Sequence record: NC_054905.1
Length of the DNA: 64,000 nt
Direction: 5' to 3' (one strand)
Source of the DNA: Enterobacteria phage Kha5h
The stretch's first letter is position 1; the number at the start of each line of letters is the position of its first letter. A model generated the notes under the pieces. That model had not been told where the DNA came from, made no database searches, and worked only from the letters and a program-made list of their open reading frames with translations. Position numbers and translations under genes: made by a program. Shown piece by piece: positions 4,718 to 54,317 of this stretch.

Positions 4718-5320
4718 TTATAGATTAAATCCTTCAAAATCAAGAGTATAGATAGTGTATGTTGAATACTTTTTGTACTCATATCTATCTGCAATTCTAA
4801 ATACACTTCCAGCTGGTATCATTACTTCTTGTTCATCTGAAACTAATTCCATATTACGATAACGATGGCTATCCGGAAACTTAAAGTTTGGATTGTATTC
4901 TTTACAGCGTAGAGCTTTTATAGCATACTCCTGGAAATTGAATACCATAGGAGCTTTGAATTCAAAAATAACTTGTGTGTTATACTCTAAACCGGAAGCA
5001 AAATGTAGAGCTATATTTTTATCATATGAAGCTGATACTACTTTATCAAATGTAATAATATCAATTCCTTGATTTAACACTTGCTTAGTCTCGACTGGAA
5101 CACCTCTCCAAAGAGGTTTATCGTTTGGAACCAAACGAGATTTGATTATTTCATTTAACCAAGTATGGTCATCTGGTTTGTTGGTAATACAATGAATTAA
5201 AAGTTCAATTTCAGATAAATTAAACCCTTCAGAAAGTAATTCTTCACGAATAGAAGCACGCACCGATGCATCCATTGATTTTATTTTAAAATCTTTTAGT
5301 TGCATTACTGAGTATTTCAT
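4718..5320 (-). CDS. modA: ADP-ribosyltransferase ModA
   Basis: 200 aa; R (LWRGV), S-x-S (SAS) and EQE motifs; tandem with modB. Confidence 0.7.
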   Translation of the reverse strand: MKYSVMQLKDFKIKSMDASVRASIREELLSEGFNLSEIELLIHCITNKPDDHTWLNEIIKSRLVPNDKPLWRGVPVETKQVLNQGIDIITFDKVVSASYDKNIALHFASGLEYNTQVIFEFKAPMVFNFQEYAIKALRCKEYNPNFKFPDSHRYRNMELVSDEQEVMIPAGSVFRIADRYEYKKYSTYTIYTLDFEGFNL

Positions 5321-5940
5321 TCAATTACCTCAATATCATAAACTTTAAATGTTCCAAATGAATCGTGTAATTTTTCTTTTGAAATAGAAGTTATTTTATA
5401 CTTTCCAATTGGAATCATCCATTCTTGTTCATGTACAATCATCATTAAGTTATCAGTTCTTTCTGAATCTAACCCATCAGTATCTTCATACGTGTACTTA
5501 AACTCAGTGTTAGGAGAAGAAAGTATAATATCGCTGATATGGTCAGAATAATTAAAAGCTTTATCAGTTTTTAAACGAAGTATTGTTTCAGTGAAATATT
5601 CAGCATAAGAAAAAGAACACGCTGTATGCAAACTAGTAGTAAATGAATCTACTCTGTTCGTTGAAAACACTTCTCCAACTTGTAAATCTTTAATAAGTTC
5701 TTTTGTCGATTTTGATATACCACGATATAATTGATAAGGCGATTTAGTTAAATGCTTTTTAATGATTTTATTCAACTGCCTATGAAGAGCTTCATTCTTT
5801 TTGGCTTCCATACATTGCCAAAGAACAGACTGCTCGAAGTCAGTAAATTTTTCACAGACTTTTTTATACATATCATGTTGAAAATCAACGCTTTCAGCTT
5901 TTATAGATAACTGTTCAACATCTGCAGGATTAATAATCAT
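5317..5940 (-). CDS. modB: ADP-ribosyltransferase ModB
   Basis: 207 aa; YRGI, STN and EQEW motifs; paralog of ModA. Confidence 0.7.
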   Translation of the reverse strand: MIINPADVEQLSIKAESVDFQHDMYKKVCEKFTDFEQSVLWQCMEAKKNEALHRQLNKIIKKHLTKSPYQLYRGISKSTKELIKDLQVGEVFSTNRVDSFTTSLHTACSFSYAEYFTETILRLKTDKAFNYSDHISDIILSSPNTEFKYTYEDTDGLDSERTDNLMMIVHEQEWMIPIGKYKITSISKEKLHDSFGTFKVYDIEVIE

Positions 5941-11580: not shown

Positions 11581-11626
11581 ATTAACCTTTATTCATAAAA
11601 GCATTAAAAATTTGGTCATCAATAGA
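11574..11626. repeat. direct repeat copy B (3' end of 208-aa gene)
   Basis: One mismatch to copy A over ~50 bp. Confidence 0.8.
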
Positions 11627-12208
11627 AACATTTACTTTAGACTGTTTTTCAGATGGCAATTCATATCCACATATTACAATTTTATGATCAATATTAAAAT
11701 ACACAGAAGCAATATGATTAATGATATTTTCAGTGAAGTCTAAATCGACATCAATATCTTTTTGACCAAAGCCCAAAGGATAAATAATGCGAGTAATTCG
11801 ATTATCTTTAACAAAGATTCCACCGACATACTCTGTACTGCGTTTAAAGTCTACACGCCGACGAAATGAAAAATATTCAGGCTCTCTATGAGCTCGGCTC
11901 ATAGGACACAACGAGTAACTAGAATAAGAGATGTCAAATCCTACACCTTCGATATGAGCCAAAGTGTTATGATTAAACCAATTATAATCGTACGCCAAAT
12001 CCATTAGATTATAATATGTAAAAGGCACCGGATTAACATCATTAGTCACAAGCATATAATTAGCAACTGCTATAATTTCATTGTTTTTAACGAATACAAA
12101 CCGTGATTGATGCGAATGACCTGGACCCGCGTTTTCACGATTAATGATATAACACTGGGCACCTTTATATTTGTATGTATCTTTGCACTTGTGCATTTGA
12201 TAGAGCAT
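11582..12208 (-). CDS. hypothetical protein (208 aa)
   Basis: Track ORF; C-terminus SIDDQIFNAFMNKG duplicated in neighbour. Confidence 0.55.
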   Translation of the reverse strand: MLYQMHKCKDTYKYKGAQCYIINRENAGPGHSHQSRFVFVKNNEIIAVANYMLVTNDVNPVPFTYYNLMDLAYDYNWFNHNTLAHIEGVGFDISYSSYSLCPMSRAHREPEYFSFRRRVDFKRSTEYVGGIFVKDNRITRIIYPLGFGQKDIDVDLDFTENIINHIASVYFNIDHKIVICGYELPSEKQSKVNVSIDDQIFNAFMNKG

Positions 12209-12820: not shown

Positions 12821-13003
12821 TTATCCTCGGCAATCCACTTCGCACACTTTCTTGTCATCAATGAAAGCTTTAACTAATGCTTTATTAACTTCAGCATACT
12901 GAGTAGTAGCCCATTGAACGTCATCTTTCATCATTGTGGTTTCTTTAGTAAACATGCTTTCATTCTTAAACCACCCCATAAAAACTACCTTTACCAATTC
13001 CAT
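12821..13003 (-). CDS. dmd: Dmd, antitoxin against host RnlA/LsoA RNases
   Basis: 60 aa MELVKVVFMGWFKNESMFTKE..., recognised as T4 Dmd. Confidence 0.8.
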   Translation of the reverse strand: MELVKVVFMGWFKNESMFTKETTMMKDDVQWATTQYAEVNKALVKAFIDDKKVCEVDCRG

Positions 13004-49724: not shown

Positions 49725-49937
49725 TCATTTTTGTCCTGTATTTACTTTATGCCGATGCACGGCCTTAACTTTATCAAGGTATTTTTCAAAATTTCGCAAT
49801 CTAGTATAGTCTGCCGGAGATTGGTTGAGTGATACTTCTCGACGCAAAGCTGAAATGATATTTCCAACTTCCCTACGAATTTCATCTAATTGAAGCACAG
49901 TAAGATTGCGAAGTTGCTTTTCAGTTAATTGTAGCAT
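49725..49937 (-). CDS. hypothetical small protein
   Basis: Track ORF 70 aa. Confidence 0.45.
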
Positions 49938-49979
49938 ATATACCCCTTTAGTTAGATAAACCTATTTATAACTTTTGCA

Positions 49980-50561
49980 CTAACCAAGCTTTTTAGTTAA
50001 TTCATTCCAATGTTTTCTGCACAAAGAAACATAAATTTCATCACCAATACAGATTTGATTACCTTCTTTAACTGGTGTTCCATCTTCCATTAATCGAGCT
50101 GTCATAATCGCTTTTTTGCCGCAATGACAAACTGCCTTTAGTTCAATAAGTTTATCTGCAATCGCTAAAAGTTCTTTAGAACCTTCAAACAATTTTCCAG
50201 CGAAATCAGTCCTTAATCCATAAGCCATAACAGGAACATTATATGTATCAACAATTCGGCTTAATTGGTGCACCTGTTCAGTTTTTAAAAACTGAGCTTC
50301 ATCTACAAATACGCAATGAATATCTTTTTGTGCTTCAGCCCATTTATAGAACTCGAAAATATCCATATCATCTGTAATAATATTCGCTTCCTGTTTAATT
50401 CCAATGCGAGAAACAACTTCACAGACAGAATCGCGAGTATCAATAGCAGGCTTAAGAACTAATACACTCATTCCACGTTCTTTATAATTATGTGCAGCAG
50501 TCAAAAGAGAAGCAGATTTTCCAGCATTCATTGCTGCATAAGTAAAAATTAAACTCGCCAT
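49980..50561 (-). CDS. tk: thymidine kinase
   Basis: 193 aa; P-loop AAMNAGKS; C-terminal zinc-binding cysteines. Confidence 0.9.
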   Translation of the reverse strand: MASLIFTYAAMNAGKSASLLTAAHNYKERGMSVLVLKPAIDTRDSVCEVVSRIGIKQEANIITDDMDIFEFYKWAEAQKDIHCVFVDEAQFLKTEQVHQLSRIVDTYNVPVMAYGLRTDFAGKLFEGSKELLAIADKLIELKAVCHCGKKAIMTARLMEDGTPVKEGNQICIGDEIYVSLCRKHWNELTKKLG

Positions 50562-50570
50562 ATCACCTTC

Positions 50571-50756
50571 TTAAAGCGTATTCACATAAGCTATTAATTC
50601 ATTTTCTTTCTTATCAAACCGATCAGCAAATTCTTCCTGCTGTTCGGGAGATAGCGGGCCGTATTCATCATAAAAGGTGTTTGCTTCTGCATGCTCATCT
50701 AGAAGTTCATGGATAAGCTCAAACAATTTATCTTTTTGTTCTTTGCTTAGGCTCAC
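50571..50756 (-). CDS. hypothetical small acidic protein (GTG start)
   Basis: Track ORF 61 aa. Confidence 0.4.
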   Translation of the reverse strand: MSLSKEQKDKLFELIHELLDEHAEANTFYDEYGPLSPEQQEEFADRFDKKENELIAYVNTL

Positions 50757-50929
50757 AGTATGTCAATCCCCAAAAGTTTTAAAATGACTCGTTTCTGATT
50801 CATAACCGCTACGATTGAATGACCGTTGGGGTCTTTTTGACCCGATCCAATTATAAATCCTTTTTGTGCAGAAAGTTCAATCAAAACATCAAGTTCACGT
50901 AATAATTGATATTTTAAATCATCATTCAT
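50753..50929 (-). CDS. small ORF (58 aa) below track cutoff
   Basis: ATG overlaps upstream stop, TGA overlaps downstream GTG start; fills a 170-bp gap. Confidence 0.3.
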   Translation of the reverse strand: MNDDLKYQLLRELDVLIELSAQKGFIIGSGQKDPNGHSIVAVMNQKRVILKLLGIDIL

Positions 50930-51153
50930 TTTGGTTTACCTTCTTTAACGAAATCAGGATAAGGATAAAATCCCGAATAAAATCCTTCACCTTTATGATT
51001 GATGCATCCTTTATTAGAACAATAGCACCAATAATCGAAATCACAAGCCATTTCATCATTACATAAAGCAAAAACAACAGGCCACTTACACTTTTCACAG
51101 TGGGCATTTTTAAGAATACTAGTTTGGCTCATAACCATGTAACCTTTAAGCAA
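50926..51153 (-). CDS. cysteine-rich small protein
   Basis: 75 aa with 8 Cys (CEKC...C...CYC...C). Confidence 0.45.
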   Translation of the reverse strand: MLKGYMVMSQTSILKNAHCEKCKWPVVFALCNDEMACDFDYWCYCSNKGCINHKGEGFYSGFYPYPDFVKEGKPK

Positions 51154-51341
51154 TATTCTTCTACATGTTGTTTACGACCTTTCTTATCAATAAAGGTATA
51201 TTCAACGAATGTTCCAATGTAGTCTTTATCTACATCATGTGGACTATTAATTGGACATTTAGTACGGCAAATGCGTTCCCATTGACGAATAATTTCCACT
51301 TTGTTTTTAGGATCAAACGGATGTGGGTAATGTACTTTCAT
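51129..51341 (-). CDS. hypothetical small protein
   Basis: Track ORF 70 aa. Confidence 0.4.
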   Translation of the reverse strand: MKVHYPHPFDPKNKVEIIRQWERICRTKCPINSPHDVDKDYIGTFVEYTFIDKKGRKQHVEEYCLKVTWL

Positions 51342-51792
51342 AATCCACCACTATTAAATCAATATCAGGAGTAAACATGTCGATTAATTTAGAAACCTTA
51401 TCCCAATCGCCGCCAGCAATACCACAACCTATGCGTGGAATGTAAATTACTGGTTTAAACAAAAGGGTTTCTGCCTGTAGATTTAATTCTATCATGCAGT
51501 TTACTAAAGCACCATAATCAAGATTAGGACCTGGTTCGTATTGCGTATACAGGTTATAGCATATACCAAAACCATTAGGTTTATGTTTAAAAACAATAGA
51601 CATATCGCCTAATTTATCACGAGAACCGTACTCAGTAGTGGTTTTATCTATTTCTAAAATTTTGGGATAGGCTCTTGCTAATTGACCAGCTACACCACTG
51701 CCCATTGTATGAAAACAGTTACACCCATGCGCAATAATATTACCTTCAAGAAAGAGGGCGACAATATCGCCCTTGATATATTTTACAATCAT
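51313..51792 (-). CDS. macro-domain protein (ADP-ribose binding/processing)
   Basis: 159 aa; GSGVAGQLA and IGCGIAGG loops resemble the two Gly-rich macro-domain loops. Confidence 0.6.
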   Translation of the reverse strand: MIVKYIKGDIVALFLEGNIIAHGCNCFHTMGSGVAGQLARAYPKILEIDKTTTEYGSRDKLGDMSIVFKHKPNGFGICYNLYTQYEPGPNLDYGALVNCMIELNLQAETLLFKPVIYIPRIGCGIAGGDWDKVSKLIDMFTPDIDLIVVDYESTLPTSV

Positions 51793-52130
51793 CTAGTACT
51801 CAATCCTCGATTATAAGAATCTACCAAACGGTCAACCATTGAATGACAAGCGGCTTTATCTTTTTCCTCCGCAACTGAACATTCTAAGGTATTCCACTTT
51901 TTAGCATATCGTTTTAACAATGTATCGTTTTTGTATCTGCTTGATTTATCTCTTTCTCCGTCTTTATATGCATATATTAATTTCTGCGCAAATTCAGCTT
52001 GGCATGCTTTATTTTTCCCGCAATAATCCGCTGCAGTACGGTTTACATACTCTCTAATTTCAGTATATGATGTATCTGCTAACGCAGAAAATGAAATTAA
52101 TCCTATACATAAAACCAAAATTTTAGTCAT
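51789..52130 (-). CDS. secreted small protein
   Basis: 113 aa; signal peptide MTKILVLCIGLISFSALA; 4 Cys. Confidence 0.5.
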   Translation of the reverse strand: MTKILVLCIGLISFSALADTSYTEIREYVNRTAADYCGKNKACQAEFAQKLIYAYKDGERDKSSRYKNDTLLKRYAKKWNTLECSVAEEKDKAACHSMVDRLVDSYNRGLSTR

Positions 52131-52668
52131 TTACTATTTCCAAAAGTTTATTATTTTTAAGGTAATTAGCCTTTTCTAGGACTTCAGAAGCATATTTAGA
52201 ACCTGCTTTAACATTCCATCCCGAATTATAAGAGGATATTGCTTTTCTTATATCGCCCTTATGTATATTTAACCAATAAGAAAGTTCAATGTACGCCCAG
52301 GAAGCTGAATTGGACCGTTTATTCAACATTCTTTTTATTTCAGCATCGGTCATATTATAACCAAGTTCCTTAACTCTTGCTCGCATTGTCGGCAAATAAT
52401 TTTGGAACATTCCGTAGGCATGATGCTTTGGTTTAGATTTTAAATTAACTCCGGCAGAGCTTTCTTGCCATAAAATAGCAGCCATTATATGACCTAATCC
52501 GCTCTTGTGGATATTTTTGTGTGTTTTATATTTTCCATCCTTAGAAAATTGTTCCCCGAATTGATACGCGTAACGCATGTTATCGAGTTGGACATTACTG
52601 AAAGTATGCTCGGAGCTATGTGCCATCATTGAAATGGCCAATAGACCAGCGAGTAGTGCTTTTCTCAT
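52123..52668 (-). CDS. secreted lytic transglycosylase-like protein (SLT domain)
   Basis: 181 aa; signal peptide; LWQESS, GMFQ and YNSGW motifs. Confidence 0.6.
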   Translation of the reverse strand: MRKALLAGLLAISMMAHSSEHTFSNVQLDNMRYAYQFGEQFSKDGKYKTHKNIHKSGLGHIMAAILWQESSAGVNLKSKPKHHAYGMFQNYLPTMRARVKELGYNMTDAEIKRMLNKRSNSASWAYIELSYWLNIHKGDIRKAISSYNSGWNVKAGSKYASEVLEKANYLKNNKLLEIVND

Positions 52669-52675
52669 GTTTACC

Positions 52676-53137
52676 TCATTGAGTTTTAATTACTGCTTTA
52701 GAAGCCTTTCCTGGTAAACGACGACTGTTGATAATTGCCATCCTGCATTGAAGTGACGGGTTTTTGAACTTCTCATTAGGCTTACAAACTGTAAATCCAA
52801 GCCAAAGATTTCCATCTGTGATTTCTAAACGTCCAGGACGATATTCAATCCCATCAATAAAATCCTCGTCAATGTCAGGACGCGGAGGCATACTCAGGAA
52901 TTCATTAACTTCTAAAACATGGTCTTTTATTTTATGGAATAATTCAAAAACGTATGTCTCATCAATCTCCCGTTGAATTGCGCGATCAAGAAGATGCTGA
53001 GAATATTTTAGATGAAACGATGAGACTCCTGCTGCTTTTGATGCCTCACGAATCTCATTGTTAATTTGACGAAACTCCGACTCAAAGTGACGACGAAGCT
53101 TATTTCGACGGATAAAAACTTCTGTGTTGATAGTCAT
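52676..53137 (-). CDS. regB: endoribonuclease RegB
   Basis: 153 aa; recognised as T4 RegB; early promoter 53165-53194. Confidence 0.9.
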   Translation of the reverse strand: MTINTEVFIRRNKLRRHFESEFRQINNEIREASKAAGVSSFHLKYSQHLLDRAIQREIDETYVFELFHKIKDHVLEVNEFLSMPPRPDIDEDFIDGIEYRPGRLEITDGNLWLGFTVCKPNEKFKNPSLQCRMAIINSRRLPGKASKAVIKTQ

Positions 53138-53164
53138 GTTATTCTCCTCTTAACTGATAGAAAA

Positions 53165-53194
53165 ATTATACCACAGTCAAGAGGAAAAGTAAAC
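53165..53194 (-). promoter_or_regulatory. early promoter (GTTTAC-N18-TATAAT) for regB
   Basis: Consensus hexamers upstream of regB. Confidence 0.6.
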
Positions 53195-53196
53195 AA

Positions 53197-53517
53197 TTAT
53201 TCTTTAAATCTAATCAATTTATTCATAGACTTTGAAACTTCTGCACGAACCTCATGTAGGTTTTTAAGCTGTTCAAGACGCTGCTCATAGTAAGCAATTT
53301 CATCTTCTTCGAGACAGTCCTGCGAATCTTCTTTAAGATAACGTGCATAGTCCTGGAAAGCTTTACGGACTACTTCCTGGAAGTCATCAAGACTTTGAAT
53401 TTTCTTAGGAGCAACAGATACACGACGAGGGGCAGTATAATACTCATAACCAAACCCTGCGCTTAATTGAGCCATTAATATTTTTCCTCTGGTTGGAACA
53501 CAGCACGACAAGCCCAC
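53197..53517 (-). CDS. hypothetical protein
   Basis: Track ORF 106 aa. Confidence 0.45.
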
Positions 53518-53777
53518 ATACTGGCTTCTTTGAGTTTCGTTTTAGCAATAGTTAACTGATCGAGGCTTTCAGCATAATTCTTCGCGAATTCACAGTCTTC
53601 ACAATTATCTAGTGCTTCCCAGAATTCATCATATAAAGCGTCAAAGATAAGTCCTAAACGAACTTCAGCGTCTTTGATAGCATTCACTTTACCGATTTTC
53701 TCTTCAGTATGTGGCTTATAACCCTTAATATCTTCAATCATATTTGACTTCCTCACCAGTACATAAATCATATTCAA
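53475..53777 (-). CDS. hypothetical protein
   Basis: Track ORF 100 aa. Confidence 0.45.
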
Positions 53778-53955
53778 CTAAACGAATAGGTTCATGAATG
53801 CCATATCCTTGAACAGAAATTTCTGTCGTAGGATAAATTCCATCAATATCACCCATATTCCATGCTTCATTAAATTGTTGTTCGCCTGAATTACTAAACC
53901 ATTCGGCGAAAGCATTTAGCACATCTTTAGAACCTTCAATAATTATCTTTGCCAT
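53734..53955 (-). CDS. hypothetical small protein
   Basis: Track ORF 73 aa. Confidence 0.4.
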   Translation of the reverse strand: MAKIIIEGSKDVLNAFAEWFSNSGEQQFNEAWNMGDIDGIYPTTEISVQGYGIHEPIRLVEYDLCTGEEVKYD

Positions 53956-54317
53956 TACAAACTCTCAGTAAAGGTACGAGCGATAACGTCGCGCTGCTGT
54001 TCCGGAGTCAGAGAGTTAAAGCGAACTGCATAACCGGATACACGGATGGTCAGCTGCGGATATTTTTCCGGATGCTTAACTGCATCTTCCAGAGTTTCGC
54101 GACGCAGAACGTTAACGTTCAGGTGTTGACCACCTTCAATTTTAACTGTAGGCTGTGGTTCAATTTCAATTTCACGGGCATGCAAACCGTAGAAAATTTC
54201 TGGGTCTACAAAAGAGTCCTCTTTAAAGGTTTTAGAGACAATAATTCGTGCTTGAATACCATCTTCAAAATAAATAGTACCTTTATGTGTGCCTTCAAGA
54301 ATTTGATATGCTTTCAT
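53955..54317 (-). CDS. autonomous glycyl radical cofactor (GrcA/YfiD-like)
   Basis: 120 aa; C-terminal ~60 aa including [25 protein letters not shown] near-identical to E. coli GrcA as I recall it. Confidence 0.75.

Follow-up and report, generated by a model that had tools for sequence, protein, structure and literature searches.

In phage T4, tk.4 was the single significant hit when a transposon library was grown on a DarTG2-expressing host by HIDEN-SEQ, and a clean tk.4 knockout was sensitized to DarTG2, the gene being renamed adfM, for anti-DarT factor Macrodomain (2025 preprint, 10.1101/2025.11.20.689424). The preprint deduced the enzymatic step, removal of ADP-ribose from DNA, from homology to the DarG protein of M. 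tuberculosis. A macro/A1pp match of tk.4 orthologues has been noted since 2006 (PMC1524935). A further stand-alone phage macrodomain countering DarTG2 is gp104 of PhiKZ, also named AdfM, which removes DarT2-placed ADP-ribose from DNA in vitro and the N23A variant of which has reduced activity (Morgan et al., Cell Rep 2026, PMC13309987). The same role of counter-defense against DarT toxins is filled by AdfN, AdfA (RB69 gp61.2) and AdfB (ICP1 Gp145), although their folds and mechanisms are unrelated to those of AdfM. AdfN, encoded by T4 gene 30.3, counters DarTG1 and is a NADAR hydrolase with guanine-ADPr as its substrate (PMC11825919), whereas AdfA and AdfB are small, direct DarT binders, the latter a protein of 77 aa that acts purely by binding and with single-residue specificity (PMC11481870).

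Among cellular macrodomains, SCO6735 of Streptomyces coelicolor removes ADP-ribose from DNA thymidine and rescues E. coli from DarT; its Q85A variant is inactive and its N27S variant almost inactive, and the mechanism proposed is water-mediated, with the Gln positioning the distal ribose (PMC9411070). The SCO6735 subclass is defined by a mobile loop that is five residues longer than in DarG and TARG1 and that carries the DNA-contacting residues Lys89 and Lys94. Human TARG1 (OARD1) cleaves T-ADPr DNA according to literature cited in PMC13036486.

The DNA analyzed here, referred to as the window, is a stretch of 64,000 nucleotides from Enterobacteria phage Kha5h (NC_054905.1), a T4-like phage of the genus Tequatrovirus. 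An earlier note on this DNA had placed a macro-domain protein of 159 aa in the tk-regB interval and had recorded modA and modB in the same window, all of which was confirmed. The open reading frame list and the DNA gave a real ATG-to-stop frame of 159 aa at 51313..51792 on the minus strand, lying between tk (49980-50561) and regB (52676-53137), with modA at 4721-5320 and modB at 5320-5940 (98.5% and 96.6% aa identity to T4 ModA and ModB, respectively). The gene order in T4 (NC_000866) is tk, tk.1, tk.2, tk.3, tk.4, vs, vs.1, regB, and the window frame fills the tk.4 slot exactly, with tk.3, tk.4, vs, vs.1 and regB following one another as in T4. Directly upstream lies vs, the valyl-tRNA synthetase modifier gene (51789..52130, minus strand; an open reading frame with 97.4% aa identity to T4 Vs and a match to PHROG 1256), whose stop overlaps the tk.4 start in an ATGA that can be read from the sequence. 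Downstream, the last 29 nt of tk.4 also fall within tk.3 (51129..51341, minus strand; an open reading frame whose product has 92.9% aa identity to Tk.3 of T4), an overlap produced by the loss of 13 nt compared with T4, as the DNA alignment shows. T4 tk.4 encodes 155 aa and is annotated as 'phosphatase; contains A1pp phosphatase motif'; the window protein is 58% identical to it over 155 aa without a gap (E = 4e-70) and is 4 aa longer. From its reading frame, its Pfam Macro match, its AlphaFold2 model and its homology and position relative to T4 Tk.4, the gene at 51313..51792 is a tk.4/adfM-type gene for a stand-alone macrodomain protein, and by position it is orthologous to T4 tk.4 (adfM). Around the gene, a 1.8-kb stretch matches Shigella phage ESH35 at 99.6% and Sf22 at 99.5% identity, and the translated homologue of vB_EcoM_IME340 is 100% identical to the window protein. 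A promoter and terminator scan of 49800-54000 returned 12 promoter-like sites where chance alone would give 16.2, which makes it useless as evidence on transcription. A hairpin in codons 7-13 of tk.4, together with a possible pairing to the Shine-Dalgarno region, had z = -1.74, with 9 of 200 shuffles folding equally well, and is too weak to claim.

The anti-DarT role suggested in the earlier note is supported by this orthology, as T4 tk.4 is needed against DarTG2 (10.1101/2025.11.20.689424). With the T4 knockout result published, the idea is correct for the orthologue, and the anti-DarTG2 function is to that extent already known. For the window allele, the DarTG2 phenotype is an extrapolation from the T4 allele, because the two proteins are 58% identical and the tk.4 alleles appear to fall into discrete classes.

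The assignment of the protein as a macrodomain was borne out by both profile searches and structure prediction. Pfam Macro (PF01661) was matched at E = 6.2e-8, with 33.1 bits against a gathering cutoff of 22, residues 22-136 aligning with profile positions 2-117 of 118 (116/118 covered). PHROG 335, which also contains T4 Tk.4, was matched at E = 1.6e-71. The lack of a predicted macro fold had been named as grounds against the assignment; instead, the AlphaFold2 model, built from an alignment of 65 homologues that had no row for T4 Tk.4, showed six strands and five helices in the three-layer alpha/beta/alpha arrangement of the macro fold, built around a central mixed beta-sheet, with a mean pLDDT of 94.2, a pTM of 0.89 and disorder limited to the last three residues. 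Foldseek with this model reached E <= 0.001 for 179 PDB matches, all 50 of those listed being macrodomains or designs on a macrodomain scaffold. The best structural match was TARG1 (E = 2.5e-10, target-normalized TM 0.82), and the other top matches were yeast Poa1p, BT1257 of Bacteroides, the DarG macrodomains of T. aquaticus and M. tuberculosis, and SCO6735, all with a probability of 1.00. When a profile of the family was searched against PDB sequences, BT1257 ranked best (1.9e-19), with TARG1 at 5e-17, SCO6735 at 3.5e-15, Poa1p at 5e-15 and DarG at 2.8e-12. All of these proteins fall into the ALC1/TARG1-like class, and the window protein is a free-standing macrodomain of that class.

Both of the glycine-rich loops recorded in the earlier note are present in the translation of the DNA. 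Loop 1, the phosphate-binding loop GSGVAGQLA (aa 31-39; 51676..51702, minus strand), aligns with 'MGAGIA' and 'MGKGIA' of TARG1 and DarG, and among 118 aligned homologues, which reach down to about 39% identity, its G33 and A35 are invariant and G31 is found in 108. Loop 2 contains IGCGIAGG (residues 121-128) and forms part of the stretch P119-R-I-G-C-G-I-A-G-G-D-W130 (51403..51438, minus strand), which resembles 'PRIGCGLAGGTW' of SCO6735 and 'PRIGCGLAGGKW' of BT1257 almost identically; here P119 and W130 are invariant, and G122 and G124 are conserved in 117/118, the sole exception being a gapped sequence. The motif H22-G-C-N25-C26 (51715..51729, minus strand) has H22, G23, N25 and C26 invariant in 118/118, its N25 corresponding to Asn27 of SCO6735, Asn22 of DarG and Asn23 of PhiKZ AdfM in alignments to SCO6735 'HVCND' and DarG 'NTVNC', and D49 is likewise invariant. 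In N80-L-Y-T-Q84 (51541..51555, minus strand), where N80, Y82 and Q84 are invariant in 118/118, a Gln occupies the position of the catalytic Lys: the profile alignment sets Q84 on K84 of TARG1, and hhalign sets 'NLYT/Q' on 'NFPT/K' of DarG (K80). The same 14 invariant residues, N25 and Q84 included, are found in T4 Tk.4. The mobile loop between Q84 and Y92 has seven residues in 90 of the 118 members.

The earlier note had named absence of the binding and catalytic residues on alignment as a point against its reading. For the binding loops the residues are in place, but where DarG and TARG1 have their classical catalytic Lys the family has an invariant Gln, as does SCO6735, in which that Gln is essential. 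This division was seen throughout a joint alignment of the window protein, T4 Tk.4, BT1257, SCO6735, the ALC1 macrodomain, TARG1, two DarG macrodomains and PhiKZ gp104, in which the column of the catalytic Lys holds Gln in the first five and Lys in TARG1, DarG and PhiKZ gp104. In addition to Gln84 in place of Lys84, the window protein has Ala126 at the position of Asp125 (profile alignment), so that neither residue of the TARG1 Lys84/Asp125 dyad is kept, although the short mobile loop of TARG1 (4J5R) is shared by the Tk.4 family. SCO6735 (5E3B) and BT1257 (2FG1/2AFC) are, at about 27-29% identity, like the window protein in having the Gln at the TARG1-K84/DarG-K80 position, the Asn in H-x-C-N, no equivalent of Asp125 and a near-identical PRIGCG[IL]AGGxW loop, and like it they are orphan, stand-alone proteins with no toxin partner. 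Paired by motif, the window protein and SCO6735 read HGCNC and HVCND, NLYTQ and NMIGQ, and PRIGCGIAGGDW and PRIGCGLAGGTW, respectively, with Gly23 of the window protein at the position of Val25 in SCO6735. The mobile loop of the window protein, however, has 7 residues against 13-14 in SCO6735 and BT1257, making it 6-7 shorter (a 6-column gap in the alignment), and the long loop of the SCO6735 subclass is absent from the Tk.4 family in both the joint alignment and the 118 homologues. Strict membership of that subclass was therefore rejected on account of the missing long loop, even though the Gln and Asn are as the subclass has them. On the residues of the active site, the T4-type AdfM family is best described as a candidate Gln-type, short-loop thymidine-ADP-ribose hydrolase, and its chemistry is probably of the SCO6735 type and not of the DarG type.

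The relationship to DarG itself is one of homology. The DarG macrodomains of T. aquaticus (5M31/5M3E) and M. tuberculosis (5M3I) have a homologous fold and ADP-ribose pocket (Foldseek E of about 7e-9 to 3e-8, TM of about 0.74-0.78), hhalign of the family against DarG-type macrodomains gave a probability of 98.5% and E = 2.4e-15, and the predicted substrate, T-ADPr on ssDNA, is the same. DarG differs from the window protein in its Lys80, which is Gln in the latter, and in a C-terminal DarT-binding domain, which has no counterpart in the bare macrodomain of the window. Membership in the DarG family was rejected: the NCBIfam model NF048014 scored 27.8 bits against a cutoff of 250, over profile positions 2-142 of 338, and the PADLOC DarG model scored 27.7 bits over positions 3-144 of 329, only the macrodomain part being matched, which is evidence of homology nonetheless. 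No darT lies next to tk.4 in the window, its neighbors being vs and tk.3. As regards an origin from a DarTG operon, the single cellular homologue examined (Pelagimonas) was also stand-alone with no darT nearby, but one locus says little.

Equivalence with the AdfM of PhiKZ was likewise rejected, since gp104 is of the DarG type with its Lys and barely matches the window protein. Against M. tuberculosis DarG, gp104 gave E = 9e-25 and keeps the Lys motif 'FPTK', whereas BLASTP against the window protein returned only a 23-residue match (E = 0.001). This closeness to DarG, combined with a near lack of similarity to the window protein, makes the T4-type and PhiKZ-type AdfM separate recruitments of different macrodomain branches, so that, judged from the sequences, the name AdfM covers two independently recruited macrodomain lineages. 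AdfB of ICP1 was also rejected as a relative, being a DarT binder of 77 aa with no macro fold.

It is likely that the window gene is an allele of T4 adfM, encoding a macrodomain that protects the phage from DarTG2, most plausibly by hydrolysis of the SCO6735 type. Under this model, DarT2 would ADP-ribosylate thymidines in single-stranded phage DNA after infection and so block replication; the phage macrodomain would grip the ADP-ribose through both glycine-rich loops and cleave the bond between thymine and ribose, rendering the DNA replicable again. Asn25 would hold Gln84 in a place from which the latter orients the distal ribose and the transition state towards an attacking water, with no Lys-based catalysis of the TARG1/DarG kind. 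What this analysis shows directly for the window protein is its macro fold with both binding loops, an active site of the Gln/Asn pattern and orthology to T4 tk.4 by position; we infer an enzymatic action of T4-type AdfM and, one step further, the same activity and target for the 58%-identical window allele. Several observations weigh against the model. The T4 allele for which the phenotype was obtained differs from the window allele at 42% of positions, including loop 2 (IGAGIGKG in T4 and IGCGIAGG in the window), the long mobile loop of the SCO6735 subclass with its DNA-contacting lysines is missing, as is the catalytic Lys of DarG, and full-length DarG models score far under their threshold.

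The explanation that survives best beside hydrolysis is that DarT2 is neutralized mainly by stoichiometric binding or occlusion, with hydrolysis secondary or absent and with alleles that would track DarT2 variants. Although catalytically dead, the Q85A variant of SCO6735 continues to inhibit DarT, more strongly than DarG K80A or TARG1 K84A do (PMC9411070), which makes a binding mode plausible as an addition or an alternative to catalysis; AdfB of ICP1 provides a precedent for anti-DarT action purely by binding (PMC11481870), and a sharply diverged tk.4 body within near-identical flanks is what would be expected of an arms race between proteins. The residues of the active site and those binding ADP-ribose are, however, invariant across the 118 homologues, which argues that hydrolysis has been retained, and the 159-aa bare macrodomain has nothing corresponding to the C-terminal DarT-binding domain of DarG. 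Binding as the main mode of action is considered improbable.

Another explanation would make the protein a housekeeping enzyme of ADP-ribose metabolites, either a Poa1p-like ADP-ribose-1''-phosphate phosphatase or an O-acetyl-ADP-ribose deacetylase, and not a nucleic-acid de-ADP-ribosylase. It agrees with the existing names, the protein being called 'phosphatase' in RefSeq, as is PHROG 335, and T4 Tk.4 having been credited with an 'A1pp phosphatase motif' (PMC1524935), and a survey of viral macrodomains lists soluble ADPr derivatives as possible substrates of viral NADAR proteins and macrodomains (PMC9503650). Poa1p is also among the best matches in both sequence and fold (Foldseek E of about 8e-10), and as H-x-C-N-C is common to Poa1p and the window protein, the sequence leaves room for a small-molecule substrate. 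The sequence match to Poa1p lies, however, mainly in the N-terminal half (residues 3-79, 1.8e-9), the C-terminal match being weak, and a metabolite role would not account for the DarTG2-specific phenotype seen with the T4 orthologue. To our knowledge, T4 RNA repair (Pnkp/Rnl1) makes no 2'-phosphate junction and no pathway producing Appr1p is known in the phage, leaving no known source of that metabolite. Overall, a metabolite enzyme appears very unlikely.

The substrate could also be uracil-linked ADP-ribosylated RNA, or another nucleic-acid adduct, instead of or besides T-ADPr DNA, a prospect to which we attach a similarly slim chance. Uracil-linked ADP-ribose on ssRNA is removed by TARG1, DarG and SCO6735 alike, most efficiently by SCO6735 and TARG1 (PMC13036486). 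On the other hand, neither 5'-phosphate-linked nor 2'-OH RNA ADP-ribosylation was reversed by SCO6735 in the results of a further study, the discussion of which nevertheless claims activity on RNA phosphate ends (PMC11833690). The literature search turned up no bacterial defense that ADP-ribosylates RNA uracil, and the one phenotype on record concerns DarTG2, a system acting on DNA thymidine.

It is scarcely credible that the protein reverses or edits the ADP-ribosylation or RNAylation that Alt, ModA and ModB of the phage itself set on host proteins, and the link to ModA and ModB drawn in the earlier note found no support in this analysis: modA and modB do share the window, but lie 45 kb away, the family extends over 2,772 phage records and beyond T4-like phages, and Alt, ModA and ModB modify arginine, from which ADP-ribose is cleaved by ARH-type enzymes and, as far as we know, not by macrodomains of the ALC1/TARG1-like class.

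Returning to the likely reading of the gene as an adfM allele, the divergence of tk.4 from T4 stands out against its surroundings. Amino acid identity to T4 is 99.5% for Tk, 92.9% for Tk.3, 97.4% for Vs, 99.4% for Vs.1 and 98.7% for RegB, but 58% for Tk.4. In a sliding window along the pairwise DNA alignment, the divergent allelic block spans 51300..51750 (minus strand), with 37-80% nucleotide identity to T4 between flanks of at least 97%, the first approximately 50 nt of tk.4 still being identical to T4. Across such distances (58% aa and 37-80% nucleotide identity), the synonymous sites of the window and T4 alleles are saturated. The homologues in Enterobacter phage CC31 (61%) and Salmonella phage CGG4-1 (60%) are at least as close to the window allele as that of T4 (58%). 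Within the phage collection, 2,772 of 50,697 records contain a member of the Tk.4 family, and these are not confined to T4-like phages but include Felixounavirus-sized, Vequintavirus-sized, Ackermannviridae-sized and Pseudomonas phages. Of the records, 317 are at least 90% identical to the window allele, a single one is 80-90% identical and 122 are 60-80% identical; the corresponding numbers for the T4 allele are 224 (at least 90%) and 159 (80-90%). These separate identity bands and the sharp divergence within conserved flanks point to the exchange of discrete, old alleles rather than gradual drift, as would be expected of a counter-defense gene.

Whether such alleles also differ in function is a more speculative matter. 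They may each be tuned to one DarT2 variant through toxin binding, or to a different substrate, although we consider this rather unlikely. The toxin-binding version is modeled on catalytically dead SCO6735, and the substrates envisaged in the other are T-ADPr DNA, U-ADPr RNA or protein. Candidates for such classes are the alleles of the window and of T4, one type with about 84% identity to T4, and others that share about 75-80% identity with the window allele. If the alleles did differ in this way, phages in an arms race could swap tk.4 as a specificity cassette, and its Gln active site, paired with the short form of the mobile loop, would represent a third catalytic design among T-ADPr hydrolases.

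On the likely reading, a gene long labeled 'phosphatase' or 'hypothetical' in hundreds of T4-like genomes would be an anti-defense gene. Hosts with DarTG2 should then fail to restrict phages that carry tk.4, which would make the gene relevant to the prediction of phage host range and to phage therapy. As T4-type AdfM is Gln-type and no copy of DarG, inhibitors or models built on Lys80 of DarG would not be expected to transfer to it, and the distinct alleles within conserved flanks offer a testable sign of ongoing host conflict. Relative to what was already known, the present analysis adds that the active site is Gln-type with a short loop, that PhiKZ AdfM belongs to another lineage and that the alleles form discrete classes, none of these points being very surprising. 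Two further features of the window were recorded: a homologue of 61.2 is encoded at 11585-12208, and a second block replaced relative to T4 covers the tk.1/tk.2 interval at 50560-51140.

Comparison of the literature with the sequences showed that the name AdfM (anti-DarT factor Macrodomain) has been given independently to two distinct macrodomain lineages, represented by PhiKZ gp104 and by T4 Tk.4, the counterpart of the 159-aa window protein (51313-51792, minus strand). PhiKZ gp104 belongs to the lineage of the antitoxin DarG and carries the lysine found at the DarG catalytic position (Lys80), whereas T4 Tk.4 belongs to a lineage with glutamine at that position and has motifs like those of the Streptomyces macrodomain SCO6735; the two proteins have the fold alone in common. 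A cellular homologue that shares approximately 40% identity with the window protein is encoded by a stand-alone gene on the Pelagimonas phthalicica chromosome (locus L003, 5001-5459), and at this one locus no darT or other toxin gene was found within 5 kb. In standing alone, this homologue resembles the orphan SCO6735.

The earlier note had placed the ADP-ribosyltransferase genes modA and modB in the same window as the macrodomain gene, and both were indeed located on the minus strand at 4721-5940 (modA, 4721-5320, 98.5% to T4; modB, 5320-5940, 96.6% to T4). The distance between these genes and tk.4 is 45 kb, and no evidence for a functional link was found in this analysis. A homologue of T4 gene 61.2 (95.7% amino acid identity) is present at 11585-12208 (minus strand). 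The RB69 counterpart of T4 gene 61.2 is known as AdfA, and the window may therefore carry two anti-DarT genes, tk.4 and the 61.2 homologue. AdfA is put forward as a direct DarT inhibitor, as a hypothesis (PMC11481870). The window also contains dmd, the antitoxin against RnlA/LsoA, at 12824-13003.

At the 3' end of tk.4 (51313-51345), 13 nt are deleted relative to T4, which displaces the stop codon; the overlap with tk.3 is 29 nt, compared with 4 nt in T4, and the protein ends in the resulting tail YESTLPTSV. This tail was poorly predicted, with pLDDT averaging 62 over the last block (residues 151-159) and falling below 50 at residues 157-159. At the other end of the gene, codons 7-13 contain a GC-rich hairpin of 8 bp, AGGGCGATATTGTCGCCCT (51755-51773, minus strand), which is nucleotide-identical in T4. 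In the minimum-energy fold of 51735-51815, the Shine-Dalgarno region is also paired with downstream sequence (weakly supported, with z = -1.74 and equally good folds in 9 of 200 shuffles), a pairing that might conceivably couple translation of tk.4 to that of vs. The vs gene itself (51789-52130) carries an in-frame 6-nt deletion relative to T4 at about 52080-52110, within the hydrophobic, signal-like stretch at the N-terminus of the protein, and Vs is accordingly 113 aa long compared with 115 in T4.

The tk.1/tk.2 interval of T4 is replaced in the window at 50560-51140 (minus strand) by DNA that could not be aligned with T4, while the flanking tk and tk.3 are 97-100% identical. Three small minus-strand ORFs were found there: one of 61 aa (50571-50756; PHROG 653) with 52% identity to T4 Tk.2, one of 58 aa (50753-50929; PHROG 3452) and a cysteine-rich, zinc-finger-like one of 68 aa (50926-51132; PHROG 2306).
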